DNA of 64,000 nucleotides from a virus (taxonomy: Duplodnaviria; Caudoviricetes). Each line of letters starts with the position of its first letter. Position 1 is the stretch's first letter. Under the pieces are notes generated by a model. It was not told the DNA's origin, did not search any database, and worked only from the letters and a program-made list of their open reading frames with translations. The translations under genes were made by a program, and so were the position numbers. Positions 935-62,183 of the stretch are shown piece after piece. Where the stretch lies: positions 16,586 to 80,585 of IMG/VR virus record IMGVR_UViG_3300028591_000166; one strand, written 5' to 3'.

Positions 935-1103
935 TCCAGATGATAAAAAGATTAAGGTTATTAATGAATTAACCGAACAAGATTTTGAAAATATGGAAAA
1001 TGATTATGCAGAAACTATGATTGGTTCTGATGATGATTATGCAGAAACTATGATTGGTTCTGATGATGATTACTTAGCTATGTTAGAAAATTCAGAAGAA
1101 TAA
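927..1103 (+). CDS. Small acidic protein, 58 aa, not in the ORF track (MYNPDDKKIKVINELTEQDFENMENDYAETMIGSDDDYAETMIGSDDDYLAMLENSEE)
   Basis: AAGGAGG at 914-920, ATG at 927, TAA at 1101-1103. 19 of 58 residues are D/E. Confidence 0.8.
   Translation: MYNPDDKKIKVINELTEQDFENMENDYAETMIGSDDDYAETMIGSDDDYLAMLENSEE
1002..1072 (+). repeat. 33-bp exact tandem duplication, in frame (DYAETMIGSDD x2)
   Basis: GATTATGCAGAAACTATGATTGGTTCTGATGAT at 1002-1034 and 1035-1067, followed by a partial GATTA. Confidence 0.95.
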
Positions 1104-1108
1104 AAGTA

Positions 1109-1140
1109 AAGGCGTAGATTAATTTCTACGCCTTATTTTT
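1109..1140. terminator. Bidirectional intrinsic terminator between the convergent plus-strand operon and the giant gene
   Basis: Stem AAGGCGTAGA / TCTACGCCTT with a 6-nt loop, A-rich 5' flank and TTATTTTT 3' flank. Confidence 0.85.
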
Positions 1141-4100
1141 ATTTACGATATTTACTACGCATCGATCTTACAATTCTTTCCCATTGTATTTGTTTAACAA
1201 TATCATAAGGATTCTTTGATTGAGATCTATGTTTACCGTATTTAGTAAATAAATCTTTATAAATATTTTCATATTTAGTCCAACGTCCATTATTAGTTCG
1301 TCTATAATTATATGGTGTATATTTAGAATAACCATTAGTATAGTTATAATTACCTATAGTATTATATGAATCATAGTTATTATAATTATTATATTCAAAG
1401 AATAATGAATTTGAATTTCCTAAAGATTTTTGTGTTAATTGTACTTCACCATTTTTAATAGATATATGTTTTGGAGATACAACATTAGCTGCTTTGGTTA
1501 ATGCTCCAACTGTAGCAAGTTGTTGTATTGCTTGTTTAAAGTCTCCAGTATCTATCATTTTAGAAATTGCACGAAGAATAGGATTGTATCGTTGTGTTAT
1601 ATATTCTGATGAACTATTTAATAATGATTGTACATCCCACATACCATTACCTGCACGAACACCTATGTGTCTACCAATAGGTAACCAACCATTAGCTATC
1701 ATAAATTTAGTCCATTCATCATATTGACCATCTTCGTCTTGATATTGTCCATACATACCATCAATAATATCATCCATAAATACGGCAAATCGTGGATCTA
1801 ATATTCTATCACACCAGTCTCCTAATGCTCTCATAGGGAATGATATATAAGGAATATCAAACATAAGTTGTTTTTCAAATGGACTTCTTTGTCCGTAATT
1901 GAACCAAGTTCTTAACGACATAGCAACAGATTCATCAAATGTTTTATCATACATAGTACGATTAAATATAAAGTATGTAATACGTGCAACGTTTTCAGTT
2001 CGTTCTGTAAGATATTTATATAAAGGTGTCATTAAATTACCTTCAGTTATAAATTCAGCTAAATTTTTAGAATATTGTTTTTTAGTTTCTTTTAACATTT
2101 TTTGAATATCTTCAATAGATATTTCATTATTAAATGTATGATTAGTGTTTCTATATTCATCCATCATTCTATATAATGTTTCATATTGTTGTGCTTTAAG
2201 ATAATCGTTTTCAGCTTGTGTATTCATGAAAGCAGATACTTCAAATAACATTGCTTCTGCACCTTTTAAATCCGTTTGGTTGTCTTTAAATCTTTGAATT
2301 TTACTACATGCTTTTCGAGGTTGCATAGATTCTTTAGAAGCATCTATTCTAAATCCTTTAATTATTGTTCCATCTGGTTCAATAATATTATCATAAAGTC
2401 TATAGTATTCTGCGAAACTTATGTTCATAAGAAATTTAACTGCTTGTTGTAGATCATATGAATTTTGTACAGCTTTAAATATGTATTTTTCAGGTTCTTT
2501 ACTATTTAAAATATTAATACTTTTATCAATACCATTAATTAATTTTTCAATGTAATCTAAGTTATTCTGCATAGCTTTAGTAGTATTAGAATTATCAGTT
2601 AATGTATTAGTTATTTTTATATAAGATATTAATTTATCTTTTATAAGGTTCATTTTAGTTTCTATTAATTCTTTATTACTTTCTGTTTTAGCTAATTTTA
2701 TAATATCTTCATAATGCATATTAACTTCAGATAAAGTTAATATACGTTCATCATATACATATTGATATACGTTATATATTTGATCTGATAAATGATATAA
2801 ATTATGTAATTGTTTTATATTTAATTGAGAAGCATAACCTAATTGCCTTAGTTCTTCTGATTTTAATTGATATATAGTATCAGCCATATTACGTAATAAG
2901 AATCCTGAAGACATACGAAGTAATACTTTTTGAATACTATTAAGTATACCAATTACACGAGAGAATTTACCATCTAATTTATAAGGTTTAAATGAAAATT
3001 CATCTGCTTCCATAATATAGTTTATATTTGTAATACCTATTTCTGGAGCATTCTCTTTATTTTCAATAATTAAATCATAGATAGCTTTAAGATCTTTAGG
3101 TCCTCTTATCTGTAATTCAGTTAAAGTAGGTGTCATATATTTAGCATATATTCCATTATCAGATAAATCTAATTTATCAGATATACCGTTATATGTTTTA
3201 CCATTAAATGTAAATTTAATATCACTATCTTTAGTGTGTGTTTTTAAGAATGATGTTAATTCTTCTAATGTGTTAAATCTTAATTCTTGGTTTAATTTAT
3301 ATGAATTTCTTTTTGGTTTTTTACCTTGTTTTTCTACATCCCAGTTATGTAATACATCATCAGCATCTTTTTTAAAGAAATCATTTAAGCCTTTTAATAG
3401 TCCTTGTGATTCAGATTTATCAGGTTTTCTTATTACAGTTACTCTTAAAGATCTATAATTTTCTTTTAGATAATTCCAGAATGCATCAAAGTCAGGTTCT
3501 TGATTTCCTTTAGAATTCTTTTTAATAAATAAAGATAATTGATTTATAAATGGGACTTGGTAATTATCTAATTGCATTAATTTAGAATTATAGAAATCTT
3601 GAATATCCTCATTAGTTAATTCTTTATGAGTATTCATATTTATTGTACCATCGTTTAATAATTCACCTTTAGATGTTTTTAAGAATGATAATAATCCACC
3701 GATGTTTTCTGATAAAGCCCAATCTATAGCCATATGTTTATCTTTTTCTATATCATCAAGATAATTATTTTTTTCTAGATTAAGTGATTTCCTGAGTTTA
3801 TCTTTATCGTTATTATTTAAGAATGTATTTAATTTATTAATTTCAAATTCTTTTATTGATTGTAATTTTTCTAGTTTATCTCTTGTTTTTATAAGTTTGT
3901 TCTTTTGTTGTTCTAGTTTTCTTAATTCAAAGAATGCTTTTGTTATGTTCTTTTCTGTAGGTTTTAAGAATATAGATCTTGTGTCTGCATAATCTTCTAT
4001 TATTTCATGTATAATTTGTTCCCATGAATCATTATGTCTAGTAGGTGTATTAACAAGATCTTCAATTTGTTTAGCTGTAGTTTTATAAATAGATTCTTCT

Positions 4101-7100
4101 AATTTTATTTCATTTATAAAATTAATTAAATTATCGGCTAAAGTTATTTGTTGATTAGATAAATATAATTGTGTATCATTTAATGATTTTAATACATCGT
4201 GAACAAATTGTGGTCTTAATTTATTTACCTCATTGCTGTCTTCTTTCATATTACCGTTAGCGATACTTTCGATACGGTCCCATAGATTATCATATTGTTT
4301 ATTTAAATCATATGCTTCTTTAATATCACGAAGTTCTCCTGATAATAAGTATAAATCAGAGTCAACATCATCTACACCTAATAAGTAATTTATTATAGCT
4401 TTTTCTTTTTCATCTCCATCTTTAATTAAGGCATAATTTAATCGTCTAAAACTATCTCTATCTAAGTAGATACTACCAAGATACATTTCCATTAAACATT
4501 TAGTTTGTTTTAATATAGGTATATTTATGTTTGTTTTAGTATAGAATGTATTAATGCCTGCATTTCTTAAGACATTGTTTGCTTCGTTTAAATGAGTAAA
4601 GCCATTTATTATAGCATATATAATTCTGTATAATGGGATATCATACTTACGTAGTACCATTATATTTTCGTATAAATTTTCTTTAGTGTTTTTATTTAAG
4701 TTATTGAAATTAATTAATTTATTATTTTCATCAGTTAATAAATTTTCTAAATTACTTATAGCATCTTCTACCTTACTATATGCTTGAGTATTATTACTTA
4801 AATAATCTTCTTTAAATAATTGTTTTCTTATTCCATAAGTTATAGATTTTTGTAGATTGTTGTACTCGTCTGAATTATGTAATAATGATTCTTTATAATT
4901 ATCTACTTTATATTTTTCTGAAGCATGTGCGTCTCTCATTGTACTAATATAGTCATCATTAAAATTAAAATCAATATCATCATCACGTATTTTACTTAAA
5001 CCCATTGCGACTGTTTTATCTTGTGATATACCACCACCTATAGTAATTTTACGGATAGCATAGTTCTTTTTAAAGTCTCTTGTACTTGTAATATATTCTA
5101 AGAATTTAGATTCAGGATTAAATATTATAGTTCCGTGTTTTGATAAAGATATTGGACCTTGTGCTAGATCAGATAACATTTTAGATAATTGTCTAGTTAA
5201 TACAACTTGATTTAAATATTGGTCGGCAAGATTATCTACATAATTTTTCTTTTCTTCGGTTGTGCTTAGATTGTTTATTAATCTAAACTGAGTGTTAAAG
5301 TCAGAACCAAAGATAGAAGCAGCAAGGATCTTTTTCATAAATGGTGCTACTTTATTATTATTGTCATCTCTTATTGTGTTTTTAAGAGATGTTAAATATA
5401 AATCCGTGTCTCCAGAATTATCGTCACTTATGAATGAAGTATTTATTAAAAGATTTTTAAGATCACTATATGTTGCATCGCTATTGTTTAAGAAGTCTAT
5501 TACTGTATACATGTCTATTTTTATTCTATTGTAATCCAAGAATGAATCTTCAATAAATTGTAATACTTCTTTTTTATTTAGTGCTTTACTAGCATCATTA
5601 AATACAGATAATTTTTTAAGTTCTGTTTCTAATTTTTTAATATATTCTTTTTCATTGTTTTTAATATATTTGATTTTTAATAGATTCGGTATTAAGTTTT
5701 GTATATTATCTTTCTTTGCTGCAGCCTCAATAAGTTTTAATGGTGTTACTACAACTATACCATTTTGTTCTGCTTCGATATTATAATTTACTGTCCAATT
5801 ATTATTCCCTTCAGCATCTCTACCATTATTTTCATTGAGTTCATCGAACATGTTTTCAGCTGCACCACCATTTATATCTTTACGTTGTCCACCTACCATA
5901 TTAATACCTAATTTAGATAAACGACCACGTTGTAAAGTTATAGCAGTAGCCTCATTTATGATCTTACGTTTAGTTGCTGCGATATTATTATCTCCAAACG
6001 CTTTAGCTAGTTCTGATGAATCTCCATTTTCACTAAGTTGTCTAGTTATATAATTATTAACTATACGCATCTTATCTATTTCATCTTTATGTTTTTCATA
6101 GAAATCTTCCATACCTTTTTTATTTTTTAAAGAATAATTTGTAAATTCACTATTGGTTGTTTCGCCACCAGTTTGTTTAAGTATGTATGCACTTATCCAG
6201 AAACTGTAAGTATTTTCAATATCTGTAGTTGTATCTTTATGCTCTAATTGTGTTAAAGTTGTATCGTCACTATTAAAGTTTTTACTTAGTTTAGTATATA
6301 GATCTTCATCAGTTATTAATTGGAATAATTCACACCAAGCATAATGAGCTTTATTACCTCTTATTTTTTTATCTCCTTCACCTTTTGCTGCAAGTTTACC
6401 GTAGAAAGCGTGACGCATATCAGAACTTTCGTATGAATCTAATACATCAGTTAAGTTATTATTAGTATCTTTTTTAATATTATAACTATCTTCATTAACA
6501 TCTGTAAAATATCCTTTATCATAATATTCTGGCTTAGATGCATCTAGTTTTTGTAGTAATCCATCTTTAGTTATAGATGATTTATCAACAGGAATAAACG
6601 TTGCAGTGTCACCATCATTGTCACCACCTATCATTTTATATAAATATGTATAACATTCAGTGGCAGGATGTAAAGAAGCACCAACAACTTTAACAATAGG
6701 AACTGCATTATAGTCTTGGACAGGTACACGAATAGCGAATACAGACATTATTGTTTGTTTTAAATCATGATTTATATTTTTAATACCATCAATAGATACT
6801 AATTTTTTGATACCAGCAATAGATTTATAAATAGGGTGTATTAATTCATAGTTAGTATATATATTACCATTGTTATCTTTAGTAGTAGGATAAACACCAC
6901 TATTTATTAGTTGATTAATTGCTTCTACTTTTTCATTTGTACTTAAATTATTTATAGAATTAATATCTTCTTTGTATGGTATAAGTTCTAATGTATGATG
7001 GATATTTTTATCTTTTAACAGTTCTTGTAATTGGTTATAAGGTAGTTTTATTTCACCTAGTTTTAATGATGTATTTGCTACTATTTGGCTTCGTGATGCA

Positions 7101-10100
7101 ATATGTCTCGCATACTGTAATCTATAACCTAGACCTCTATCTGATATTAATTCTTTCGCTGCTTTAATACGGATAGCTTTGTCTATATTAATTGCTCTGA
7201 TTTGTGAGAATTCTTGGTCTATGTCTTTATAATAATCAAACATAAATTTAAAGTAATTTATAAAGTCTTTATTATAATATTGAGATATTAATTGGTTATT
7301 GTTTAATTGTTGTATAAATTTTATTGCAAGATTTTCTTTTCCACTTTCAGATAATTCATTAGGTTCTGTAATTTTTTCTTCTTTTAATGCTGCATCGATG
7401 TTATTTTCAATAAACTCTTTTATATCTTCATCATATTGTTTTAATCCATTTATACTTAGACTATTTACAAGGTTAGTTAGTCTCTTAGTGACATCATTTT
7501 CTAATACATATTTACGCCAATTATATCCTACCTTTTGTGAAAGAATTAAATCTAAAGAATATGATAACATACCACCAGATTCTATAGAACCCTTATTATC
7601 TCTTTCTGCATATGTTAGTGTTCCATCACCTTTATAAGTAGGATTTGTTTGTTTATGTTTTGCATAGTTCTCAGTATCTATTCTTATATATGCTGTACCA
7701 GACCATGCGCCACCAATGTATTCAATAGCTTTAGAAGATTCAGTACCATCATCATAGTATCTATATACATCTTCGATAGCATTGTTATTCGCATTTGTAA
7801 GATTTAAAGTTTTTCTAATTACAGTTGTATAGTCTTCAATACCATTTGTTTTGAAATAGTTTTCTATATCTGTTTCTGGATTAACTACTATTTTATTATT
7901 TACTATTGCTATATCATATTGTTTAGCATCTTCATAAGTATTACATTTATGTATATTATTTTCAATAAATGATAATATTGATTCTTTGGTTTTGTTATCT
8001 ATTTTAATAGTATTTGAGAACAATTCACTTTGATCAATATATCCTAGTTTATAATCAAGCATCTTGTTTAATGCAAGTTCGAGTAACATTCCATATGTTC
8101 CACGTTTTATAATGGACTCACCAGTTGCTACGAAATTTGTACCATATTGTTTAGCTAATCCTTTAATATATTTTACGGCGCCTTTATAACCTGCACCTGC
8201 CCATATTTTAGAACCTTCTTCAATACCCATAAGGATTGCGTAATCTTCATCTACGAGCATAGTATCTTCAAAAGCACGTGGATCATTAACATAGGTTATA
8301 GTAGTATTAACTCCTTGTTTAGAGTATGTTCCATTATTATAATTTTTACTGTTGTTGAGTGTTTCAACATGTGGTGTAAATGCATCTCTGTCTTTATTGT
8401 GACCTTTTATAACTATTTCATCATACCTTTTTTTAGTTTCTTCATCTATTTCTTTTTTACGTTCTTTTAAATAATTATTTATTTGTTCATCTGTTATGTC
8501 TGGATTTAATTCTTTTATAGATTCTTTTTCTTTTTCTATTAATTTACTTCTCCAGTTAATATATTCTTTGCTATTATCTGGTAGTTGCAAATATGATGTT
8601 AGGTTAATGTTATTAGAATCACCAATACGTTCATCTAAATATAAATCATTAATAATTTTTAAAGGTGTGTATCTAGCAGTAATAAGTTTACTTATTAAGA
8701 CTAAACGTACAGAGTTTGTGTTTGCTGAAAATAATGCTTCAGGTGTTAACATATCTTTAATTGTAAATACGTTACCCATACTACCTTCAGATGCCTCAGT
8801 TGCTGCGATATCTAATCCTGTACCATCAACATTTTTTAAATCCTCAGCAGTATATGTAATAATTTCAGAACCATTTGCAAATTCATCAGGTATACCATTT
8901 AATATTTTTCCAGGATCTAACGCTGTGTATTTTCCTAAGAGTTTATTCATAATACCTAAATAAACATTTGATAGATTGTTATATCCGCCTTCACCCTGAT
9001 TAGAATAATTTATAACTGATGTCCAATCTAGGAATTTGTCTATAGATTCTTGTGTAATATTTACTAATTTTAATTTCTTTATAGGTACATTAGTTACAGG
9101 TGTTGCCTTTGTTAGTGCATTTGGATCTTTAATAAAGTTTAATAATTTATTAGCTGCTTCATACCCTGTATCAGTGAAACCATAATTACTGAATTTTAAT
9201 CTTGATGCATTAATATGTATACCTTGTTTACTATCATTTTTAAGGAAATTATAGAAATTATAACTTTGGTTACATGTGTTTTCAAAATCTTCTAAACTAT
9301 TAAATTTAATAGTTTTAATTTGTGGTTTCTCTAGTTCTTCACCTTTTAAATTGTATGCGTAATTTATTTCAACATTTTGGAATTTATATGAACCGTCTTT
9401 ATTAACTTTCATTGAACATTTACATAATGTGTTATTGTACGAATCACTTGTAATGAATGTAACATATTTATCTTCATCTTCTTCTGCTCTTAAACTATTT
9501 ACAGCATTGACATACAATGTATCATCTCTTAGTTTCCAAGCATATTGGTCGTTGTTGGATCTTAGTGTAGGTAAAACAAATGTTGAACCACAATAATTAT
9601 ATGCTTCTCTAGCAACATCACTATTAGGATCTATTCTAGTACTTGCAACTTTGTTGTATTCTTTTATTTCATTTGTGTCTGTAGTTATATATGTTTTAGT
9701 TGCATTATTATTATATAGTAGATCACTGTCTAGACGTGTTAATGCTTTACTTATTTCATTACTGTCACCGACTATATCAAGAGTTTCTTTGATATAAGTA
9801 TCTATAGCTTTGGTTATGTCTTTGTATAGTATTGTAGATGTATCATTTTCAGATTGTGGTACAAAGTCTAGATTACTTATAAAGTCTATAATGTTATTTG
9901 TTTTTATTATTTCGTTATCGAAGAATGAAATCATTGTATCGTACATAGGTTGGAATAGTTTTACATTATTTATACCTTCCATAGCTTTAGATGTATTATA
10001 AAGAGGTTCTAAATTATTAATTATAATAGAAGTTATTTCTTCTAAATCAAAGTTATTTGCTACTTTAGTATTTGTTTTATTTTTATTATCGATAATTTTT

Positions 10101-19100: not shown

Positions 19101-22100
19101 AATCTGGTATCGTTTAGAGTGTTATAGATTTTTTCTATCTCTCTATCACTTAATGAATCATCTTTACTTTTAACCTGTGCTGTAAACAGATCTTTACTAC
19201 GTGCACTATAACCTAATGCTGATGTTTCACTATTTCTATTTAAAGCAATACGGTATTGATTAGATGCAGATATAAAATCTTTAACTGCTGTACGTTCATC
19301 TTTATTTTGGATTAGTTTGCTATGCAATAATGAACTAAATCCATATAAATTCAGTCTATATGTTTTAGTGAATTCATCAAAAGACATAATTGTACCGTCT
19401 TCTAGTACTAACGTAAATTCTCCAGTTTCAGTATTTTTATCAATTCTATCTACAAGTCCCTTGTAGTAGTTTTTCTTACCTGTTGTGTCTTCTTCAAATA
19501 CATCTGACATTTCTTTAAGTAAAGCACCTACTAATGTTTTTGCATCTGTGTTATTTTCATATTCAGTTAAATGTACAATATCATCTATATAATCTAGGAA
19601 ATCTTTATCTCTGTATACAATATCTTTAATACTATCTGTTGCAATTCTTAAAGATTTATCTTGACTACTACGAACCATAGATTTTTCAAATTCACTGAGT
19701 CTATCAGAAATGTTTCTTATTTCTGCTATACCTGTTATAGGTGTTTTATGAGCAAGTTCTGGTTTTAATATGTACATAGCATTATCATATATTTTAGTTA
19801 ATAATTTATTTCTTATTGATTTTTCTAGTTTTAATATATCTTCTAATATATGATCAGGATTTTTAAGGGAAGTGTACTTTGATGCGATGTCTTTAAAATC
19901 ATCATCATTATCTAGTAAGTAATCTATAGCACGGTATACTTTATTTTTAAACTGATTTGCAATATATCCTTGTGTTGCATTGTACTGTTTATACACACCG
20001 TCTTTAACTTGTTGTAATTGTATAATGATATTTTTACCGTCTACGTAATTATTACATAATGTTTCTATTAAATCTTCACGTGATATATCTTTAGTGTTTA
20101 AGTTTATAAATACATTATTTTCATTAAAGTATCCTATATTGTATTTATATTTATAACAATAGTCCACTAAAGATATCATTTCATTGTGTACATTATTTAA
20201 ATACGCATCTTCATTAGAATCATAGTCTATTGTATCTCTGTAGTTAGTAAATGTTATTTTGCCGTTTACTGATATGTGCGTAAATACAGTAGGAGATAGT
20301 TCGATATATGCTCCTCTTTTTCCATTATAATTTAGTTGCTCATATTTATTAGCAAAGTAATAACTATTTAATTCTTTAAATAGTTCATATCTAGATGCTC
20401 TTGCTGCTCTATTATTACCGCTGAAGTCGTCTAAAAAAGTATATACTTTGATATGATCTTTTTTATTTATTTTATCAAGCATATCTTTAGTTATTTTTAT
20501 ATTTTTTGCTTCATCTTTTTTCATTATAATATATGCGGCATCATCAAATTCTTCTTTAATGCTACGTTTATAATTTTTTATATTCTCATTAGTTTTATGA
20601 TTTTTTCTAGTTTCTTCTTTAATAGCTTGTGCTTCACTATCAGGTTCGTAATTAGTTTCAACATTTTCTTGTATATGTTCTTCGTTTAGCGCTTTAGATA
20701 TTTTACTAATATTTAATTTTTCTTCAGCAACTTTTATAAAGTCACTGTTATACATTAAAGCAGTTTTTCTTAAAACTTCCGTACCTGAATCTTTAGATGT
20801 TATCTTATCTTCTGATTTAAGGACTATATGGTCGTATAAAGAATCCATATTTACGAAGAACTTCAATCCTGTGTCTTCATCTAAACTATGCATTGCAGTA
20901 GCGTGTGCTTTTATAAACGAATATATAGTGGTGTTTCTTAGAGGTTCCATACAAGTGTTAATTGTATTCTCTAAACCTTGTCTCATTAGTCTTAATTCAT
21001 CTTTATTTAAATTCATAGATTCTAATGAAGTATTAATATCCTTAAGGAGTATATTAAATTTCTCTATATACGCTTTTATAACTTTATGTACTTCACTATT
21101 TTCATCATTTATTGCTTTTTTATAAATAAGATATTGCATCTGATTTTGTGTGAGTTCGTTTAAAGGAATATATTGTACTCTTGTATTAGAACTTTTAGAA
21201 GGGTAATTAGCAAGTCTGTCTAAACTTCTTATTATGTCATTTAAATATGCTTCAGAACATAATTTTTCTAAAGTATCTGTAGATATATTTGGATCATGTG
21301 ACACTATATAATTATATATAATCGTACGTAAATATTCTTGTCTCTGTATAGGAAGATTTGATGTTTCTTTCCACTTATCAAATGTCATTGCGTCGTTGTC
21401 TGATAACTCAATATCATCTATTAAAGGTGTCTTATAACCTAGTTTGTAAGTAACTGAGTTTATAATATTTATTAAAGCAGAATTAAAAGTATGTGTAAAT
21501 TTCACACTTAACTTTTTAGTTTTCTTATCTATGTATTTAAGACCAATACCTAAATCTGTTTTAGATATTTCTTCGAATTCACCATTAGCATTTTTAATTA
21601 CAAGAGGTAGTCCATTAAGTAGTGCGGATACTTCTAATGCACCTTTTTCTGAAAGTAGGTCTTGTATTGATTCATCAGTATTGTTACTAATGAATCCATC
21701 TTTATTAAGGAAGTCTAAAAATTCTTTAATTCCCGTACTTTTGGTAATATTGTATTTTTTGTTTTCAATATAATCTTTTATTTCTTTTGCTGTATCGTCT
21801 GTTATTTTTTTGCCTTGTTTAGTCAACCAAGAAGTTAATACATCCATAAAAGACTCAGTGTCAGTGAGTTTACTTTTATTGTTAAATATTAATCTTTTTA
21901 ATGAGTTTAGTGTTAAAGGTGTAGAAGTATATACTTTTTTTAGTCTTATATATTTAGATACAGTCTTAATGTAATCATCAGATAGTTCTTGTCCAATGTG
22001 TGTGATAGCATATCTTAATGCATTAACTGTACTAAATGCTGTTTCATATATATTACTATCAGAATGAATAGCAGCGTATTCACCGTAAATTATACATAGT

Positions 22101-25100
22101 GCATCATATCTAGCTTTTTGTTCTTTAGATAATAATTTAATATTTGCTTTTATTTGTGCATCTGTTAAATCACTACCACCTTCAAGTTGTTCTATTTCTT
22201 GTCTTATTTTATTAGCTTCTTCTTCTGTTTCAATTTTAATAGTATCTTCGCCATTAGAAGTTTTAATATAGTATTTAAGTTTTATTTCATCACTATATTT
22301 AAGTTGTTTTTTAGCTTCATCTAAACGTTCTTTAGTTTCGTTAACCTTTTTTATAGTTTCTTCGTTTATATTTTTAGCTCTATCTTTAACTTGTACTATT
22401 TGTTCGTCAGGAATATATTTAGATTCTTTTTCTTTAAATAATTTCTCACTGTTGAATACACTTTCAGGTTTAGCTATTTTTTCCTTTTCTTCTTTAGTTA
22501 AAAAAGCGTCTGATTTATCTTTAAGAATTTTACTTACTTTTAGTATTCTTATAGATTTTTTAGAGTTAGTTACAGTTTTATAAGAATTTTTCCATGCTTG
22601 ATATAAAGGCATAATAATTTGTTTAAATGTGAATACAGGTATATTAGACAAGCTATTAACTATTTGACCTGCTTGATTAATCATATCCATTTGATTTTTC
22701 ATATTAACATTTAAACTATATAATTTATAGACTTGTGTGTCTCTTGGTGTAAGTTTTAGATCATCTATAAATTTGTTTATTATAATATTATCTGTATCAT
22801 CATTATTATCAGTTATACCATAGTATGAATATAGCGATTCAAATGTATGTTGTGCTTTAGTGAATATATCTTTTTCTTCCTGTGTTAGTTCTTCTTTCTT
22901 ATTTTTTAATCTGTGATATTCTTCTAAAGTTTTTTTAAAGTCAACGTTTACTTCTTGTGCGTTAATATCTGATTGTGAACGTTGTATTTTTGAAGTGAAA
23001 TATTTATTTATGATGTCTGGTACATCTAATGTTGAGTCATCAATAATTTTAATTACTTCTACATTTGTACCTTTGTATAAAGTTTGTATTGATGCATATG
23101 TATCTGCTATAGCTTCTTTGCCACCTTCTAGCCATGAATCTATATAACGAGAGAAGGTATTAGGAATATTAGTATTACTTCCATATATAAGAGAACTACC
23201 TAAAGAGCTTAATTCAGGTAAACCATCTTTCATTGATATAATAATTTTTCCATCACTATCAGTAGTTGTTTTAAAAATAAACTTTGAATCAATATCGTCT
23301 AAAGTAGCGCCATTTAATACTTTCATATAAGCTTCAGTAGCATCTTTTTTCATATATTTATAGAAGCTTTTTTTGAAATTATTTCTACTTATTGATTGAG
23401 CAACTTCTGTAAGATTTTGTGGATCTATTAATATCTCACCAATTGTATCAAATATTGAATTACCGATTGAACCTAAGTTTATATTTGCCTTTTGTCTTGC
23501 TTCAGCTATAGTAGGTGAATTATAAATATCAGGTCCATATCCCCAAGCTTGAGCCATAGCTTTAACGTATGCATTTGGATCTCCTTCAGCCATACCAATA
23601 AGAGCGGCTTTACGTTGTGACGCTCCAAATAAATTATCGTTAATATCTCCATATATAGATAAAGCAGATACAAAACTTAAATCATCTATATCATCAGGTC
23701 TTTCCCAAGAATCCTCAAATTTTGTAGTTAAGGCTGTTATACCTTTATTAGCTAACATGGTTACACCACTACGGAAATAATTACCTGTAGAAGTATTTAC
23801 TAATTTATTAGGTAACCAACCAATTGCACGAGCAATTCCTTTATTTGAATCAGATAACATACTTAGTCTATCCATAGACCAGGTACTTGCGGCCATAGTA
23901 ACAACTGTAGCAATAGATGTCAAAGGTCTATTTATCCAAGAAGAATATAGGTTCATATTAAATAATTGTTGTGCTTTAAGACCTGATGGTGTTAAACTGT
24001 GTCCTACAGTTTGACCTACTAAGAATCCATTTATTGCTCCAGCAGCCATAGACATTACAGTACCTATAACATCAAGTACTTCACCTACAGCAAATAAAGG
24101 AGCACCAACAACTGCACCAATACCTGTAGAAGATGCACCAGAACCTGCAATCTCTAAAGTATCACCTACAAGTGCTACTACGTCACCTACTACAGAAGCA
24201 GTATTAAGACCTATACTAAGTCCTTTCATTAGTTCATTATCATTATCTGCTTGGATAGATTGTACTAGTCCTGCAATGTCTAAACCAAGACCTACTGTAT
24301 CCATAGCTATACCGACTACTGGTGCAAATCCAGCACTTCTACTAACTGCTTTAGAGCCTTGTTCAACTATTTTAGTTGTATCATCAGTTACTTCAGTTGC
24401 TATTTTTGTAATATCACTAATAGTGTCCGCAGATTTTGAAATATTTTTAGATGATTTGACTGCATCTATTACACTATCAGATGCTTTTTTAATTGCTGCT
24501 TTAGTTGTGGATTTTGCTGTATCTACAGCATCTTGTGCTTTATCTACAGTGTCTAGTAAATTATCAGCAGTTTTAATTAAATCATCAGCATTTACTGGCT
24601 TTGTTATAGTAGCTTGTTTTGCTTTAAGATTTGCTAATAAGGTCTTTTCATCATCAGTAAGATTAATTTTTTTACTTAATTCTTTAATTTGATTATTTAA
24701 CTCAATGTATTCTTTTTCATTTTTATTGAGACCTTTAATAAATTTATTATATTTTTTAGATGCTTTATTTAATAAATTAATTTTATCATTATAATCAGTA
24801 ATTTCTTTAGATGCGGTATTATATATAACATTTTTAACTTTATCATAATCTGTAGATCTAAAGGCTTTAGAAGTATCTAAACGTTTAGAACTAAATTTAC
24901 CTGTCCAAGGATTTTGAAAATTATTTTTATTCCAAAACTTTCTTGAGAATATATTTGTAGACTCAAAAGGACTTGTTATAAGTCCACCACCTGCAAGAGC
25001 ACCTATACCAGCACCTACTGTACCACCTATAATACCTGCTGCTTCATACCAATCTTCATCATTATAACCATACTTATCACGGATACGTTCCATATAAAGT

Positions 25101-25312
25101 TCGTTATTAACAGCAAATGGAGATTGTGCCATTTGTTGTAATGAATATTTATATTGGTTAGTGAAAGCATTTTGTATGTTTTGTATATTACGTCCTACAG
25201 TACCACTAGGCCCTATAACTAGTGGAGCAATAGCAGGACGTGCATAAAATTGTGCAGGATAAATCCTGCTATTGTTAATAGGTTGGATTGGTTTCTTTAC
25301 ATATGTAGCCAT
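1139..25312 (-). CDS. Giant (8057 aa) putative virion/ejection polyprotein containing a single-chain two-barrel RNA polymerase and a DEDD exonuclease-like domain
   Basis: Uninterrupted 24,174 nt ORF with a GAGG RBS, downstream of the capsid operon. Motifs: FED (E5682/D5683), GSK-IWAGAGY-KG (K5702/K5710), KRGTYGMLLE (R5737), IRVP (R6195), GGDNDGD (D6231-D6235), IMDMET (D4410/E4412), AHNGKQFD (D4559). Confidence 0.9.
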   Translation of the reverse strand: MATYVKKPIQPINNSRIYPAQFYARPAIAPLVIGPSGTVGRNIQNIQNAFTNQYKYSLQQMAQSPFAVNNELYMERIRDKYGYNDEDWYEAAGIIGGTVGAGIGALAGGGLITSPFESTNIFSRKFWNKNNFQNPWTGKFSSKRLDTSKAFRSTDYDKVKNVIYNTASKEITDYNDKINLLNKASKKYNKFIKGLNKNEKEYIELNNQIKELSKKINLTDDEKTLLANLKAKQATITKPVNADDLIKTADNLLDTVDKAQDAVDTAKSTTKAAIKKASDSVIDAVKSSKNISKSADTISDITKIATEVTDDTTKIVEQGSKAVSRSAGFAPVVGIAMDTVGLGLDIAGLVQSIQADNDNELMKGLSIGLNTASVVGDVVALVGDTLEIAGSGASSTGIGAVVGAPLFAVGEVLDVIGTVMSMAAGAINGFLVGQTVGHSLTPSGLKAQQLFNMNLYSSWINRPLTSIATVVTMAASTWSMDRLSMLSDSNKGIARAIGWLPNKLVNTSTGNYFRSGVTMLANKGITALTTKFEDSWERPDDIDDLSFVSALSIYGDINDNLFGASQRKAALIGMAEGDPNAYVKAMAQAWGYGPDIYNSPTIAEARQKANINLGSIGNSIFDTIGEILIDPQNLTEVAQSISRNNFKKSFYKYMKKDATEAYMKVLNGATLDDIDSKFIFKTTTDSDGKIIISMKDGLPELSSLGSSLIYGSNTNIPNTFSRYIDSWLEGGKEAIADTYASIQTLYKGTNVEVIKIIDDSTLDVPDIINKYFTSKIQRSQSDINAQEVNVDFKKTLEEYHRLKNKKEELTQEEKDIFTKAQHTFESLYSYYGITDNNDDTDNIIINKFIDDLKLTPRDTQVYKLYSLNVNMKNQMDMINQAGQIVNSLSNIPVFTFKQIIMPLYQAWKNSYKTVTNSKKSIRILKVSKILKDKSDAFLTKEEKEKIAKPESVFNSEKLFKEKESKYIPDEQIVQVKDRAKNINEETIKKVNETKERLDEAKKQLKYSDEIKLKYYIKTSNGEDTIKIETEEEANKIRQEIEQLEGGSDLTDAQIKANIKLLSKEQKARYDALCIIYGEYAAIHSDSNIYETAFSTVNALRYAITHIGQELSDDYIKTVSKYIRLKKVYTSTPLTLNSLKRLIFNNKSKLTDTESFMDVLTSWLTKQGKKITDDTAKEIKDYIENKKYNITKSTGIKEFLDFLNKDGFISNNTDESIQDLLSEKGALEVSALLNGLPLVIKNANGEFEEISKTDLGIGLKYIDKKTKKLSVKFTHTFNSALINIINSVTYKLGYKTPLIDDIELSDNDAMTFDKWKETSNLPIQRQEYLRTIIYNYIVSHDPNISTDTLEKLCSEAYLNDIIRSLDRLANYPSKSSNTRVQYIPLNELTQNQMQYLIYKKAINDENSEVHKVIKAYIEKFNILLKDINTSLESMNLNKDELRLMRQGLENTINTCMEPLRNTTIYSFIKAHATAMHSLDEDTGLKFFVNMDSLYDHIVLKSEDKITSKDSGTEVLRKTALMYNSDFIKVAEEKLNISKISKALNEEHIQENVETNYEPDSEAQAIKEETRKNHKTNENIKNYKRSIKEEFDDAAYIIMKKDEAKNIKITKDMLDKINKKDHIKVYTFLDDFSGNNRAARASRYELFKELNSYYFANKYEQLNYNGKRGAYIELSPTVFTHISVNGKITFTNYRDTIDYDSNEDAYLNNVHNEMISLVDYCYKYKYNIGYFNENNVFINLNTKDISREDLIETLCNNYVDGKNIIIQLQQVKDGVYKQYNATQGYIANQFKNKVYRAIDYLLDNDDDFKDIASKYTSLKNPDHILEDILKLEKSIRNKLLTKIYDNAMYILKPELAHKTPITGIAEIRNISDRLSEFEKSMVRSSQDKSLRIATDSIKDIVYRDKDFLDYIDDIVHLTEYENNTDAKTLVGALLKEMSDVFEEDTTGKKNYYKGLVDRIDKNTETGEFTLVLEDGTIMSFDEFTKTYRLNLYGFSSLLHSKLIQNKDERTAVKDFISASNQYRIALNRNSETSALGYSARSKDLFTAQVKSKDDSLSDREIEKIYNTLNDTRFMKFINDHETVSTRLNYMGSSKESKEMFKIVFNTDVIEAYKASGGYNQQFFIQCLNMYKKYKDNNENTEQADLLKKLICKVFLRNIRISTGNYNDQRIEKLESDAKIKEVKISTTEDDYLKRKYQVELNLLNKDIERAKSISSKIHDIGDVRLSEQILNDYCSGKINEETITDYYLNTNYTYDANKYVVAKKRNTDEYHLVDKNKTDISGKKLVTETSALPRVCLNIIENIYKFDFSKVQKDPDHIEEQYKKIEKDYEYCGAIVQKITNNNILIIVNNDTTDIDKKIKNIKAQYHNTNVYILTKDQFNKFVKNSTVDFNNIDCSYTYEYTDSSCEVNEIINKTAQDTIVPMFMHDLNSFLKDYNLYDNDRQIKNNQNIVEAIKKLEEAIDLHNKYTLYDQALDSGRDLLHTYTFAGLQRIGKLILAHQKFIDYFRDTNDDSIISINMISRFFTNEYIKNDIDDADIINTLHQTKGYNEVSNLKNKNGDTLDQALLNAIHYMRSNYADDIDNFKYEDILEDNFVDRINELIGGLTEASNTFASEWKKNSKNWKKTLQKYLNLLSTKERTNLYTQSSMRLKTIFDIEKELPINKNGKVSLLELMDAIKKDFEYNKYKRTTEAYNLDKLQSEYIKNKQTDKYKKHIHYSVVNKLVKACEKIDEKLSKNKCIVNFTNTELNTDPDVRNLVDFLGISEDTLNTISKNLPKNKRNINIHKFIYLNIVKPYIQNIGMRTLKHTQTYENATNEFMYLETATMSFMSDLNIAKQYGLISEEEYNRLSDKYINNTLKINSIKYLDSSYRFKYSYFSPSYYIDTPDKPILYTESSMGLPFETTDPVKEGYIPQLALDALGIDKHKTLQNAFDTILDNVEDAITGGVDVKKTLSINYENLDKELNDNKLLESTSTIKDLYNYIINKNNLLYTDLNKDLLVVIMSAYKLKRAESSNIFDTVDKIISYILSDGNNSNLQDINDLAKPSKNGGNIYELKDKGIEYINETVRLFEQNWDIIQRWYELKSKDKAPNIELKDMPHTFGRDILNKDTEFYKWFIKHFNKDILNNKELRNLLGLTKKDEVSKYFGITEIKNNDVSTINNYTLEQVYKNLLNNAIYKNKTNLNTDINEFYTLIMYIEKRKNDYMSETLHNKNIELTPENVVEYFEEQPLINNITFIQDFNNVHAFDRKTNSISINITDEISKPVRLLNKMRKDIKAKNDMFNTILIDNSEDYVTNDTLKKSYLVCTDNNMKKMARDINSSRLGVLFKADQKGNDYTSTLRNFREALDTFTMELFLEIEAPNYNNVGSMNTTFPEIRKYFTEAYKLFIDPKNWKDKDFIRINEIITAIQDLNNNKDPILIERSLAAFSLMREDMINKINNNKDITDKETELRKLNDSINKSLEDIVDFFNSKGYLINLSVNYTKEIIGYIWYNRQQSTKDIDKRINESTEAFKKMWNDISIYKDYVKHDPINTLYNICNSNKTEEEKINEFCDLVFEFRLTEEDKTNGVKAYDKLTEYEQQYVKDLIDMYTYTKHITLPVRVLYDTYEEAQRYTSDAATLYGEQSLATITAKNTLTNIRNKLTKVEEELQKAKDDITNAYREHYLRTRKESSDLSFNMFISGNYASEMTKAYYKKLEELDNINNQIHLNEQGRQKKKLYFVLWLVQNSNLKEDYQNGLKEYFNENIKDKTDEIDNLLLRLHIKDNLTKLKKEIRNYAELTNKLKTKEYGFYNYLRQHYDDLHNDDLYTELFAIKSDMQTEQGREKYKRLSKYYIDQLPGSKKEFEELIKRYDDTIQQINAYQYNSRYGSNNSITKTILNKAGLETNKISTDNMSKLIGMYKYIIAKEHSIEVIDNGTTTFDKLLQETSNQFIDALGTSEDKEEYREYRYVLHRVINKLDKEIQEFKRNSKNDIKEKFKKRLNIDIDNNEIYKQEILQLLYKEEKPYEELFGKTIAQVNYRLGLLSNLDDLGIGYLIDDIQYANTKPEAYTLDMRNRKYNTYHGIIERCKNIKTVLIREIINKFSYSVEDKKVLSALKPSLISNCFEIKNKKITLKQNGLEKLQKATGLKDLDINKALGLYHDYQLNQANDILKLIDAEHIDDMEVAANQYRNNTSYIRSISGLNNLNTISPKSKYYDAAKYILDSYLNDLENNTLVLNEDINNKDFINNYYDRFNTDQDEKLKNEKKKLEKEFEIYQQFKDAYGDSSDNNIDKKEKEIKELKNLLEVAEKEYKEAKENYIDSQYIYDEAKEKGKNTNIGLFKTYYGLDKNATEEEAINLAYNLIDKYNLDPNKKLTTNTEDPELHDAATDTVITFLNYIFQKGRQINKLNGVENNIDNIIKAMNTSSYYIMDMETLPSIDEYDSTPYQITLIQVENGVVKNMINTYYSNPVVNDIIKNNDGSISYGDDLMKFYKQQKNIWSKSTETEKEIEKIKTTDSYKNASNQEEYLNDKLETYYKNKFEKLRIKLSETKNTLYSTKVILHALVSTDCPIIAHNGKQFDFHKYNDFIQSYVSRLIRNEFYLCYQKYEPKQIIAKITNNGTINYSNDEQVNEYYKALEDAIDELRMKKVSTTIGQRKIEEAVRNLYVAIVRARVTSEYKKQIALTTGIILNDTQVNDMFNNPNSQYNIIKDKLYKSFNTPTEYPKETCIQEMYDIIITNKDNVTETDKSDLKISLGVLYDKVFEAYDNNINGALKVISSPKYETCEKLTKEIVKDLFNDDISDNKLNNTSLQDRIIAKNRIIKSIDTTIDLLETDMTKDDILKFTKERTKELDELKALNEQMSKDIASTELMIKENSKAYDEIVERLTKLETYYNGVIEKLRGKALEDINAQLSSRITNKKLELRSTTSYVNAKYAFDQSSLRLKQCLSNLKTFVKALKSAKDSDISVKDQDITRYLKDTQSLIDVNSIKTNKDRDNTIKLLKKYIKEYTENKKKAEELNEELQKENIKQEVLDDINKYVNTYKEGLITKYNNIIEGLQKKIDNLGIFKDVKNKFTTVDSVEKIKDNFELISKIIDNKNKTNTKVANNFDLEEITSIIINNLEPLYNTSKAMEGINNVKLFQPMYDTMISFFDNEIIKTNNIIDFISNLDFVPQSENDTSTILYKDITKAIDTYIKETLDIVGDSNEISKALTRLDSDLLYNNNATKTYITTDTNEIKEYNKVASTRIDPNSDVAREAYNYCGSTFVLPTLRSNNDQYAWKLRDDTLYVNAVNSLRAEEDEDKYVTFITSDSYNNTLCKCSMKVNKDGSYKFQNVEINYAYNLKGEELEKPQIKTIKFNSLEDFENTCNQSYNFYNFLKNDSKQGIHINASRLKFSNYGFTDTGYEAANKLLNFIKDPNALTKATPVTNVPIKKLKLVNITQESIDKFLDWTSVINYSNQGEGGYNNLSNVYLGIMNKLLGKYTALDPGKILNGIPDEFANGSEIITYTAEDLKNVDGTGLDIAATEASEGSMGNVFTIKDMLTPEALFSANTNSVRLVLISKLITARYTPLKIINDLYLDERIGDSNNINLTSYLQLPDNSKEYINWRSKLIEKEKESIKELNPDITDEQINNYLKERKKEIDEETKKRYDEIVIKGHNKDRDAFTPHVETLNNSKNYNNGTYSKQGVNTTITYVNDPRAFEDTMLVDEDYAILMGIEEGSKIWAGAGYKGAVKYIKGLAKQYGTNFVATGESIIKRGTYGMLLELALNKMLDYKLGYIDQSELFSNTIKIDNKTKESILSFIENNIHKCNTYEDAKQYDIAIVNNKIVVNPETDIENYFKTNGIEDYTTVIRKTLNLTNANNNAIEDVYRYYDDGTESSKAIEYIGGAWSGTAYIRIDTENYAKHKQTNPTYKGDGTLTYAERDNKGSIESGGMLSYSLDLILSQKVGYNWRKYVLENDVTKRLTNLVNSLSINGLKQYDEDIKEFIENNIDAALKEEKITEPNELSESGKENLAIKFIQQLNNNQLISQYYNKDFINYFKFMFDYYKDIDQEFSQIRAINIDKAIRIKAAKELISDRGLGYRLQYARHIASRSQIVANTSLKLGEIKLPYNQLQELLKDKNIHHTLELIPYKEDINSINNLSTNEKVEAINQLINSGVYPTTKDNNGNIYTNYELIHPIYKSIAGIKKLVSIDGIKNINHDLKQTIMSVFAIRVPVQDYNAVPIVKVVGASLHPATECYTYLYKMIGGDNDGDTATFIPVDKSSITKDGLLQKLDASKPEYYDKGYFTDVNEDSYNIKKDTNNNLTDVLDSYESSDMRHAFYGKLAAKGEGDKKIRGNKAHYAWCELFQLITDEDLYTKLSKNFNSDDTTLTQLEHKDTTTDIENTYSFWISAYILKQTGGETTNSEFTNYSLKNKKGMEDFYEKHKDEIDKMRIVNNYITRQLSENGDSSELAKAFGDNNIAATKRKIINEATAITLQRGRLSKLGINMVGGQRKDINGGAAENMFDELNENNGRDAEGNNNWTVNYNIEAEQNGIVVVTPLKLIEAAAKKDNIQNLIPNLLKIKYIKNNEKEYIKKLETELKKLSVFNDASKALNKKEVLQFIEDSFLDYNRIKIDMYTVIDFLNNSDATYSDLKNLLINTSFISDDNSGDTDLYLTSLKNTIRDDNNNKVAPFMKKILAASIFGSDFNTQFRLINNLSTTEEKKNYVDNLADQYLNQVVLTRQLSKMLSDLAQGPISLSKHGTIIFNPESKFLEYITSTRDFKKNYAIRKITIGGGISQDKTVAMGLSKIRDDDIDFNFNDDYISTMRDAHASEKYKVDNYKESLLHNSDEYNNLQKSITYGIRKQLFKEDYLSNNTQAYSKVEDAISNLENLLTDENNKLINFNNLNKNTKENLYENIMVLRKYDIPLYRIIYAIINGFTHLNEANNVLRNAGINTFYTKTNINIPILKQTKCLMEMYLGSIYLDRDSFRRLNYALIKDGDEKEKAIINYLLGVDDVDSDLYLLSGELRDIKEAYDLNKQYDNLWDRIESIANGNMKEDSNEVNKLRPQFVHDVLKSLNDTQLYLSNQQITLADNLINFINEIKLEESIYKTTAKQIEDLVNTPTRHNDSWEQIIHEIIEDYADTRSIFLKPTEKNITKAFFELRKLEQQKNKLIKTRDKLEKLQSIKEFEINKLNTFLNNNDKDKLRKSLNLEKNNYLDDIEKDKHMAIDWALSENIGGLLSFLKTSKGELLNDGTINMNTHKELTNEDIQDFYNSKLMQLDNYQVPFINQLSLFIKKNSKGNQEPDFDAFWNYLKENYRSLRVTVIRKPDKSESQGLLKGLNDFFKKDADDVLHNWDVEKQGKKPKRNSYKLNQELRFNTLEELTSFLKTHTKDSDIKFTFNGKTYNGISDKLDLSDNGIYAKYMTPTLTELQIRGPKDLKAIYDLIIENKENAPEIGITNINYIMEADEFSFKPYKLDGKFSRVIGILNSIQKVLLRMSSGFLLRNMADTIYQLKSEELRQLGYASQLNIKQLHNLYHLSDQIYNVYQYVYDERILTLSEVNMHYEDIIKLAKTESNKELIETKMNLIKDKLISYIKITNTLTDNSNTTKAMQNNLDYIEKLINGIDKSINILNSKEPEKYIFKAVQNSYDLQQAVKFLMNISFAEYYRLYDNIIEPDGTIIKGFRIDASKESMQPRKACSKIQRFKDNQTDLKGAEAMLFEVSAFMNTQAENDYLKAQQYETLYRMMDEYRNTNHTFNNEISIEDIQKMLKETKKQYSKNLAEFITEGNLMTPLYKYLTERTENVARITYFIFNRTMYDKTFDESVAMSLRTWFNYGQRSPFEKQLMFDIPYISFPMRALGDWCDRILDPRFAVFMDDIIDGMYGQYQDEDGQYDEWTKFMIANGWLPIGRHIGVRAGNGMWDVQSLLNSSSEYITQRYNPILRAISKMIDTGDFKQAIQQLATVGALTKAANVVSPKHISIKNGEVQLTQKSLGNSNSLFFEYNNYNNYDSYNTIGNYNYTNGYSKYTPYNYRRTNNGRWTKYENIYKDLFTKYGKHRSQSKNPYDIVKQIQWERIVRSMRSKYRK
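6600..6740 (-). other. Beta-prime-like catalytic barrel (RxP and DxDGD) within the giant ORF
   Basis: IRVP at R6195 lies 36 residues before DNDGD (nt 6608-6622). The RpoC R425 to D460 spacing is 35. Confidence 0.88.
8070..8320 (-). other. Beta-like double-psi beta-barrel motifs within the giant ORF
   Basis: RAFEDTMLV resembles E. coli RpoB YNFEDSILV. GSKIWAGAGYKG has the same K-x7-K spacing as GDKMAGRHGNKG. KRGTYGMLLE resembles SRMNIGQILE. Confidence 0.85.
11630..12230 (-). other. DEDD-superfamily 3'-5' exonuclease-like domain within the giant ORF
   Basis: ExoI-like YYIMDMET (nt ~12075-12095) and ExoII-like IIAHNGKQFD (nt ~11636-11665). ExoIII is ambiguous (see findings). Confidence 0.7.
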
Positions 25313-25392: not shown

Positions 25393-25420
25393 AAAGACCA
25401 TAGAGTTATACCCTATGGTC
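25391..25420 (-). terminator. Intrinsic terminator ending the capsid operon
   Basis: GACCATAG / CTATGGTC stem (25396-25420) followed by TTTTT on the minus strand. Confidence 0.8.
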
Positions 25421-25426
25421 AATTTA

Positions 25427-25765
25427 TTAGAGTCTTCTGAAATCACCGTTTACTGGATCACCCATAAAGTTAGCATTTTGTTGTGCAATCTTAATTTGTC
25501 TATCTATATGATTTAGATATTTCTTAAGAGCATTATAGTGACCTTGCGAGATTTCAAATTCAGAACCATCAACAGGTAGTTTTCTGAAATTACCATTAAA
25601 TGCAATAGTAATTGTTTTACCTACATATCTAGCATACAAAGGTGAAATACTATATTTAATATTTGATGTTTTGTATAGCTTGATATCATTCTGCTTAGCC
25701 TGGTTTTCTTTTGACTCTACGCCTTTTACTAAACTGGATGTTAGGTCAAATGTGTCTTTTGCCAT
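25427..25765 (-). CDS. Hypothetical protein co-transcribed with the capsid gene; possible virion protein (112 aa)
   Basis: From the ORF track. GGAGG RBS; lies directly downstream of the MCP gene. Confidence 0.75.
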   Translation of the reverse strand: MAKDTFDLTSSLVKGVESKENQAKQNDIKLYKTSNIKYSISPLYARYVGKTITIAFNGNFRKLPVDGSEFEISQGHYNALKKYLNHIDRQIKIAQQNANFMGDPVNGDFRRL

Positions 25766-45719: not shown

Positions 45720-46157
45720 TTATTCTACTGCTATTGCTTTTGCTTCTGCGCAACAAGATGATTCTTTTTGATAGTTCTTATATAGTTCATCCATTTCTTG
45801 TTTATCTATAACACAACTACATGGAAGTTCTAAATAATTAGATCCTTTATAATTTTCTACATAACTATAACGTCTAAATACATCTTTTTCAGTTTTACAA
45901 CCTTTTGATTGTAGCCAATATGGTGTATCGACACATACAAGAATATCTGCTTGAGCTAATAATTGTATAGATTTTCCTAAATACCATACAGCTTCATTTT
46001 GAGTAGTATATGGAGGTTTTTCTTTAACTATAGTATTGATGAATTCAATATCATCTCCTAATGCTACTTTAGCTATTGCCTTCATTTTTTCTAAAGACTT
46101 TTCAATGTTTTCTTTTGTCCTATTTTTCATAGGTACTGATAAAAATACTTTTTTCAT
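45720..46157 (-). CDS. DUF4406 / nucleoside 2-deoxyribosyltransferase-like protein
   Basis: KVFLSVPM ... SIQLLAQADILV ... W..SKGCKTE, including the Glu typical of the NDT fold. Confidence 0.7.
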   Translation of the reverse strand: MKKVFLSVPMKNRTKENIEKSLEKMKAIAKVALGDDIEFINTIVKEKPPYTTQNEAVWYLGKSIQLLAQADILVCVDTPYWLQSKGCKTEKDVFRRYSYVENYKGSNYLELPCSCVIDKQEMDELYKNYQKESSCCAEAKAIAVE

Positions 46158-61624: not shown

Positions 61625-61659
61625 CTAAAATGTTAATAAATTGTAGAAATATTTACATT

Positions 61660-61976: not shown

Positions 61977-62183
61977 AATCTGACACAGTGGGTCTGTGTG
62001 CATAACTTCATACAATTATCATATAAAGAACATATAAGTAAGGTATAGTGAGAAGATGGTAAGAGGAACACGGAGAAATATGGACTAATGAATGAATATG
62101 AATATATACCCTTTAAACCAAGAGCGTTTTAAGAACCACCCCCTATACATCTATATGTCAAAGAACGTGTGCATTATTTAGGA

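Follow-up and report, generated by a model that had tools for sequence, protein, structure and literature searches.

A 931-kDa protein with a probable two-barrel RNA polymerase core in a lineage of gut phages

Virion-packaged RNA polymerases (vRNAPs) have been described for N4, crAss-like phages and P23-45, and giant transcription-apparatus proteins are a recognised signature of the crAss-like phages. A single open reading frame (ORF) that takes up 30.0% of an 80,585-bp sheep-gut phage contig in IMG/VR (IMGVR_UViG_3300028591_000166) raises the question of whether it, too, encodes a protein of this kind. Coordinates below refer to the window, the 64,000 nucleotides that correspond to positions 16,586 to 80,585 of the contig, unless stated otherwise.

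The giant ORF runs from 1139 to 25312 on the minus strand, starts with ATG and has 8057 codons without an internal stop, which bears out the earlier note on this DNA; its homologues are collinear. The encoded protein (P0001) has 8057 residues, a mass of 931 kDa and a pI of 5.8. A GAGG ribosome-binding (Shine-Dalgarno) site is found 8 nt upstream of the start codon. A chance open frame is ruled out because, at 28% GC, each codon has a probability of 0.087 of being a stop, and 8057 open codons would arise with a probability of about 1e-318; the other five frames contain between 276 and 1441 stops each across the same stretch. A variant of about 97% identity is present in a gut metagenome from 2013, and all of its indels relative to the giant ORF keep the frame: a loss of 3, a gain of 3, a +1/−1 pair placed 5 nt apart and a cluster that sums to 18. 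The frame is under selection and reflects neither chance nor misassembly, and the ORF is virtually certain to be a real, conserved gene. A 155-aa ORF lies antisense to it within the polymerase core described below (8496-8963, plus strand) and is probably a chance frame.

The gene is also found in other collections. One public DNA contig matches it at 100% over 20 kb and probably comes from the source sample. In addition, an independent RNA library from sheep gut, produced in another study, contains contigs that are 100% identical to it in at least eight places along its length (window 1000-20999; runs X2 and X4). Since these metatranscriptome contigs match at 100% identity, the same phage strain recurs in sheep. 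The giant gene is possibly transcribed, but the contigs may stem from contaminating DNA, and their coverage is no proof of transcription. Sequencing runs with small shares, from bovine, goat and other guts, do not count here as evidence of habitat.

When residues 5500-6699 were used as a HMMER query against 1.84 billion proteins, 14 relatives were found, five of which are themselves giants of 7597-7838 aa that match at the same relative position. Two more giants, one of 7600 aa and one of 7874 aa, came from a second database, where their contigs measure 50-83 kb. Together with P0001, these make eight full-length giants (the seven homologues span 7597-7874 aa) that align collinearly from end to end at 23-35% identity. 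Another IMG/VR contig, G001 (81,831 bp, 36% GC), has a 7596-aa ORF in the corresponding location and shares the order of about 30 genes with the present genome. Its giant counts as the ninth distinct homologue and is 26-36% identical to the others. In all, nine collinear giants of 7596-7874 aa are known besides P0001. G001 was recovered from IMG/VR with a shortened degenerate DNA pattern for GGDNDGDT, a first degenerate pattern having given no match there. Another huge ORF, of 3889 aa (G001:C1:53345-65014, loci L028/L029), is found in G001 where the present window has fibre-like genes and smaller ORFs. Two shorter relatives, P0011 (2051 aa) and P0013 (2331 aa), were considered as free-standing short forms and rejected; they are fragments, because both frames run open to the ends of their contigs. 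A tblastn search of the polymerase region against 50,697 phage records gave no match, nor did Pfam searches of the homologue fragments. On balance, the giant gene appears to define a small lineage of ~80-kb phages from animal guts with head genes nearest those of Firmicutes podophages.

The contig has 28% GC, is classed as linear in IMG/VR and has an estimated CheckV completeness of about 82%. Its ends share a 177-bp direct repeat, identical but for one mismatch (G000:C1 1-177 and 80409-80585, the latter being window 63824-64000). The left arm, transcribed from the plus strand, encodes a DnaG-type primase, an SNF2 helicase, a family A DNA polymerase with an exonuclease, a PD-(D/E)XK nuclease and AAA ATPases. 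This early/replication arm also includes an HNH endonuclease gene (L001:3408-4394, plus strand; phrog_1891, E 3e-20). Besides the head genes, the minus strand encodes a primase-helicase, fibre-like proteins and a 1421-aa protein. Where the minus-strand primase-helicase gene and the plus-strand genes diverge, the intergenic region (61638-61978) has iteron-like repeats, TAGTAGTAT and ATACTACTA, clustered in both orientations, with two exact copies of a 27-nt unit at 61899 and 61933; the region is a candidate origin or regulatory region. No tRNAs were found in the genome.

The head genes are all on the minus strand: the large terminase (51195-53099), an SU10-type portal (49128-50999), the major capsid protein (25803-27605), which is the next large gene upstream of the giant, and a small conserved protein (25427-25765) between the two. 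The capsid and the small post-capsid protein have their homologues in genes 8 and 9 of Paenibacillus podophage API480, and all four proteins have their nearest relatives (~30% identity) in the Paenibacillus larvae podophages API480 and SV21, not in Crassvirales. The earlier note had placed the giant next to podovirus-type capsid, portal and nozzle genes. Its setting on a phage structural strand is supported, but the portal and large terminase, on the giant's strand, are 24 kb distant, and a nozzle gene was not identified. Between the portal and the tail-like genes, there is a nucleoside 2-deoxyribosyltransferase-like gene together with a gene for a small HTH protein (45720-46157 and 46154-46510, minus strand). 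Genes for a tail tube, a sheath or a tape-measure chaperone were not recognised in the genome, and neither was another RNAP or a sigma factor.

The giant is the last gene of the capsid-strand unit, following the major capsid gene, the small protein and a terminator. Just upstream of the capsid gene is a perfect consensus sigma-70-type promoter, TTGACA-18-TATAAT (27818-27789, minus strand), which implies that the late unit is transcribed by the host RNAP. Between the capsid unit and the giant is a strong terminator-like hairpin with an 11-bp stem and a T run (25396-25420, minus strand), an arrangement that suggests that the giant is expressed at a low level relative to the capsid protein. Five nucleotides past its stop codon is a second, bidirectional terminator-like hairpin (1109-1134).

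A conservation profile of the giants shows eight blocks, at residues 1-150, 301-670, 4401-4600, 5381-5780, 5851-5960, 6031-6520, 6681-6770 and 7191-8057. Those within residues 5381-6520 (5753-9172, minus strand) make up the putative RNAP core. Its first half, residues 5505-5889 (7646-8800, minus strand), is beta/Rpb2-like and matches solved structures of second-largest RNAP subunits. It includes the beta-type catalytic motifs (8102-8272, minus strand): F-E-D5683, K5702-x7-K5710-G and R5737. The second half includes a candidate beta'-type barrel, residues 6139-6244 (6581-6898, minus strand), with R6195-x-P-x-Q followed by D6231, D6233 and D6235 (codons at 6608-6622). These are the sites at which the earlier note had placed the RNAP motifs, and the motifs are indeed there, with the three aspartates in GGDNDGD and GYKGAV at 5708.

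Residues D5683, K5702, W5704, G5708, K5710, G5711, R5737, R6195, P6197, Q6199 and G6229 are invariant in the 12-13 sequences that could be compared. The beta motifs FED and GxK-x7-KG are conserved, which provides the acidic ED and basic Lys/Arg residues of a beta-type barrel, and RxPxQ-x31-GGDNDGD is invariant across the homologues. Conservation of the Asp triad had been set beforehand as a test that could refute the polymerase reading; all homologues that span the region have the DxDGD triad, down to 22-25% identity. The block around it is among the best conserved of the protein, with a mean identity to the reference of 0.49 compared to 0.24 overall. For D.DGD alone, the chance expectation is about 0.15 in 8057 residues of this composition.

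Three segments can be aligned with Escherichia coli RNAP subunits, and they stand in beta-then-beta' order. FEDTMLVDE aligns to FEDSILVSE of RpoB, and 4 of 2000 shuffled sequences aligned equally well. The second segment, GSKIWAGAGYKGAVKYI, given as IEEGSKIWAGAGYKGAVKYI in the fuller alignment, is also aligned to RpoB (45 of 2000 shuffles), while RVPVQ...LHP...GGDNDGD aligns to R...LHP...NADFDGD of RpoC (24 of 2000).

An AlphaFold2 model of residues 5500-6699, built on only 14 sequences, has a mean pLDDT of 50 and a pTM of 0.33, with several moderately confident segments. The top 50 Foldseek matches to this model are nearly all RNAP beta/Rpb2-type chains, none of them at E ≤ 1e-3. In a fold search of BFVD, RNAP beta subunits were mixed with tape-measure-like helices, and every match had an E above 0.03. 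Of the two apposed double-psi β-barrels (DPBBs) expected in the earlier note, the beta half is thus consistent with beta/Rpb2-like fold matches, whereas the beta' half is seen only as a strand-rich part of the model, without a fold match and with a pLDDT below 50 across the Asp triad.

Family searches found no RNAP in the giant. Pfam and PHROGs searches of the whole protein gave two sub-threshold matches only, to TMP_4 and a tail terminator. PF00562 and PF00623 were matched neither by hmmscan nor in a six-frame search of the genome, and all 14 control genomes were matched. PF00940 (T7-like RNAP) likewise gave no match, but in this case the control search matched nothing anywhere. Sequence and profile searches of the PDB with both halves and with the RNAP profile returned low-complexity noise only, and hhalign comparisons of the core with crAss RNAPs, RpoB, RpoC and YonO showed no family link. 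What fold matches there are involve two-barrel RNAPs. Taken together, residues ~5381-6520 very probably form an RNAP core of the cellular two-barrel type, and this core is probably catalytically active. With somewhat less assurance, it may be described as a minimal, cellular-like, single-chain polymerase in which beta is followed by beta', of a family that is undetectable by sequence.

About 800 residues upstream of the RNAP core is a region that resembles the DEDD exonucleases (residues 4355-4640; 11393-12250, minus strand). D4410-x-E4412-T4413 (ExoI) and G4555-x2-F4558-D4559 (ExoII) are invariant in the eight giants; the exonuclease motifs reported in the earlier note are therefore present, as DMETLP at 4410 and HNGKQFD at 4553. 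A conserved ExoIII motif, H-x4-D or Y-x3-D, was not found downstream of ExoII in the eight giants. An invariant H4363-x4-D4368 lies instead 45 residues upstream of ExoI, and hhalign sets it on the ExoIII motif of DnaQ (LHGALLD), insignificantly (E 0.41). From the order of these motifs, a circular permutation is possible. A wide VIA fold search of the exonuclease model gave matches dominated by a helical hairpin. Although its support is weak, an exonuclease-like domain is moderately favoured overall.

At the N-terminus is a conserved module of residues 1-670 (23303-25312, minus strand), in which a hydropathy scan picked out Gly/Ala-rich hydrophobic segments at residues 94-112 (24977-25033) and 332-433 (24014-24319). 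Length-matched searches with the N-terminal 700 aa found no standalone homologues. The C-terminal module, residues 7191-8057 (1142-3742, minus strand), is the most conserved part of the protein, with a peak at 7801-7900, and ends in a basic tail rich in Tyr, Lys and Arg. Its 858 aa have no relatives in the PDB, and a length-matched search for standalone homologues returned nothing but a single fragment from another giant. The chain lacks internal repeats. Nothing in Pfam, PHROGs or the PDB matches some 5000 of its residues, the strongly conserved terminal modules among them, in keeping with the earlier note, which could assign no motif to most of the ~5600 aa upstream of the RNAP. That note also called the protein a polyprotein. 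This term is not supported because no protease was found, and there is no sign of cleavage.

How does the giant compare to known systems? The crAss-like proteins (gp66 of Cellulophaga phage phi14:2 and its relatives in cr1_1, cr10_1 and Flavobacterium phage Fpv1) share with it a single-chain, two-barrel RNAP inside a very large protein. Deposited gp66-like cores are found in single coding sequences of 4551 aa (cr1_1), 4460 aa (cr10_1) and 4401 aa (Fpv1, annotated as a structural protein); the range of 2200-5000 aa and the "architecturally different" label that the earlier note gave were therefore overstated. The genes for gp65-67 of phi14:2 and for the 4401-aa protein of Fpv1 are located at the end of the structural block, as the giant gene is, and the RxPxQ strand that precedes the metal motif of gp66 aligns with that of the giant. 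However, a profile of seven crAss/Fpv1 members compared with the giant gives an hhalign E of 0.014 and a probability of 3%, which falls short of homology to the gp66 family. The profile of the giants found no match to gp65, gp66, gp67 or the Fpv1 proteins with hmmsearch, and no homology was found between the giants and gene 16 of API480, gp65/67/68/69/71 of phi14:2 or the Fpv1 neighbours. The metal motif is DNDGD in the giant and DFDID, DFDVD or DYDID in the crAss/Fpv1 proteins. The giant's phage lacks crAss-like head genes, and the giant is 1.8 times longer than the fused crAss-type proteins. It is one chain where phi14:2 has gp65, gp66 and gp67 and where Fpv1 has five adjacent genes that total about 9100 aa.

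The best structural matches to the core are RpoB and RpoC, the non-virion RNAPs of AR9 and PhiKZ, and the RNAPs of ASFV and the poxviruses. Cellular and jumbo-phage RNAPs have FED, GxK-x7-KG and R-x-P...LHP...DxDGD in the same order as the giant, in which the spacing from R to D is 36 residues, and RpoC shares the R...LHP...DxDGD layout. Unlike in the multisubunit enzymes, both barrels are on one chain. The distance from FED to the Lys motif is also far shorter, about 20 residues compared to about 250 in RpoB (positions 813 and 1065, as quoted in another earlier note), where this stretch includes the flap. Since the metal motif has the cellular G (DxDGD) and the hhalign comparison with crAss/Fpv1 is insignificant, the motifs suggest that the core resembles the cellular/jumbo-phage type more than the crAss type.

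YonO, from the Bacillus prophage SPbeta, is another single-chain, two-barrel RNAP of a Firmicutes phage and has the DNDGD variant with an R-S-P strand upstream. Unlike the giant, it is a free-standing protein of 839 aa, and it is not known to occur in virions. The DNDGD variant is listed for YonO-family proteins in a published survey. When YonO is compared with the giant, the hhalign alignment is confined to 15 residues around DNDGD (E 0.15), hmmsearch gives no significant match, and homology beyond the metal motif was not found.

Two further systems for comparison are gp96 of Thermus phage P23-45 (5002 aa) and the N4 vRNAP (~3500 aa), both of them giant proteins that bring an RNAP along in the virion to transcribe the first phage genes. 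The RNAP of gp96 is at the N-terminus, the rest being a tape measure, whereas that of the giant is located at 67-81% of the chain, and the 6900 flanking residues have no assigned family. The N4 enzyme is T7-like and not two-barrel. The same concept is seen in the polyvalent proteins of phages and conjugative elements, in which unrelated activities are fused in one packaged protein and delivered with the DNA, to work as infection begins (Iyer et al. 2017, PMC5512222). The typical domains of these proteins and an embedded peptidase were not detected in the giant with Pfam or PHROGs. A full-text literature search found no description of the giant-protein family, although the collection was limited and this absence is not proof.

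The reading that best fits these observations, and that is modestly favoured, is that the giant is a 0.93-MDa multidomain protein of a gut-phage lineage, with a two-barrel RNAP core, that is packaged, ejected and transcribes the first genes. Delivery by the virion is suggested by the position of the gene after the capsid gene, the Gly-rich hydrophobic N-terminus and the failure to recognise any other phage RNAP, together with the similar placement of gp65-67 of phi14:2 and of the Fpv1 protein and the published behaviour of the vRNAPs of N4, the crAss-like phages and P23-45; such delivery is somewhat more probable than not. According to this model, the giant would be made late and at a low level by read-through of the post-capsid terminator or re-initiation after it, and a few copies would be packaged in the head. 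It would be ejected ahead of the DNA or with it, and its glycine-rich hydrophobic N-terminus would engage the host envelope. The RNAP core would then transcribe the first phage genes ahead of all phage protein synthesis. Whether the protein acts as one uncleaved chain is somewhat doubtful.

A bolder version, which is rather unlikely as a whole, holds that the uncleaved ~0.93-MDa chain is the entire ejection and early-transcription apparatus (envelope conduit, DNA-pulling RNAP and processor of RNA/DNA 3' ends) of a podovirus whose host is a gut bacterium of low GC, probably Gram-positive. The RNAP would in that case be a minimal fusion of beta and beta' that has so far gone unrecognised and that groups with the cellular-type clade, not with crAss, QDE-1 or YonO, and the protein would be the largest phage protein found on record.

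Packaging is suggested by gene position, the hydrophobic N-terminal segments and analogy, and the giant might instead be an intracellular enzyme, a middle or late RNAP or a replication or repair factor, that never enters the virion. An exonuclease-like domain and a two-barrel core would also suit nucleic acid processing, archaeal PolD being a two-barrel DNA polymerase, and the host-type promoter at 27818-27789 indicates that the host RNAP is used on the giant's strand. However, the gene is part of the capsid unit and not of the replication arm, which has its own PolA with an exonuclease, primase and helicases, and the fold matches are to RNAP beta subunits and not to PolD. A mass of 931 kDa and hydrophobic N-terminal segments are hard to reconcile with a soluble role, and the known giant phage proteins that carry an RNAP all belong to the virion. 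An intracellular enzyme is therefore considered unlikely.

It is less likely still that the giant is the tape measure of a long-tailed phage with a fused RNAP, as in P23-45, its helical bulk setting the length of the tail and forming a conduit for the DNA. Besides this precedent, the idea draws on the TMP_4 match at residues 168-238 (E 8.5e-4), although at 19.9 bits it is below the 27-bit cut-off. Gly-rich hydrophobic segments are typical of tape measures, the models are mostly helical, and tape-measure proteins occur among the low-scoring viral fold matches. On the other hand, TerL, the portal, the capsid and the post-capsid protein are nearest those of the podophages API480 and SV21, the genome has no recognisable tail tube, sheath or chaperone gene, and the giant adjoins the capsid gene and not tail genes. 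At the usual figure of 1.5 Å per residue, a tape measure of 8057 residues would correspond to a tail about 1.2 µm long. Finally, the RNAP-like core could be a degenerate relic in a protein that is purely a structural or ejection cargo scaffold, as might be supposed from its extreme divergence from every RNAP family and from a chain that is mostly without an enzymatic signature. Such decay is hard to square with catalytic residues of both barrels that are invariant among homologues only 22-47% identical, or with the 0.49 mean identity of the Asp-triad block, and is the least probable of these explanations.

If the giant is indeed a virion-delivered RNAP, then it is not the first of its kind, because gp66-like coding sequences of 4401-4551 aa and P23-45 gp96 at 5002 aa precede it. 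It is the scale, the lineage and the RNAP family that are new. At 8057 aa, it is the largest of a family of 7596-8057 aa and probably nearly twice the size of any RNAP-bearing virion protein found on record. A whole block of cargo proteins has apparently been fused into one chain, in a phage lineage unrelated to Crassvirales, and the RNAP belongs to a family that sequence methods do not recognise and that seems closer to the cellular type.

To our knowledge, virion-delivered two-barrel RNAPs have so far been tied to Crassvirales, which infect Bacteroidota, and to one Thermus siphovirus. The present family, if the reading is correct, would extend the virion-RNAP strategy to unrelated ~80-kb phages of the gut and rumen with heads of the Firmicutes-podophage type. 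The core itself, at about 1100 residues, would be a very small cellular-like beta-beta' polymerase, useful for the question of what a minimal two-barrel transcriptase requires, and the ~5000 conserved residues without a known fold represent a large unexplored protein space. There would also be a physical question of how a chain of 931 kDa is translated, folded, packaged and threaded through the portal. For the phages themselves, it would mean that, in evolution, all the ejected proteins can be fused and encoded by a single gene, here 30% of the genome.
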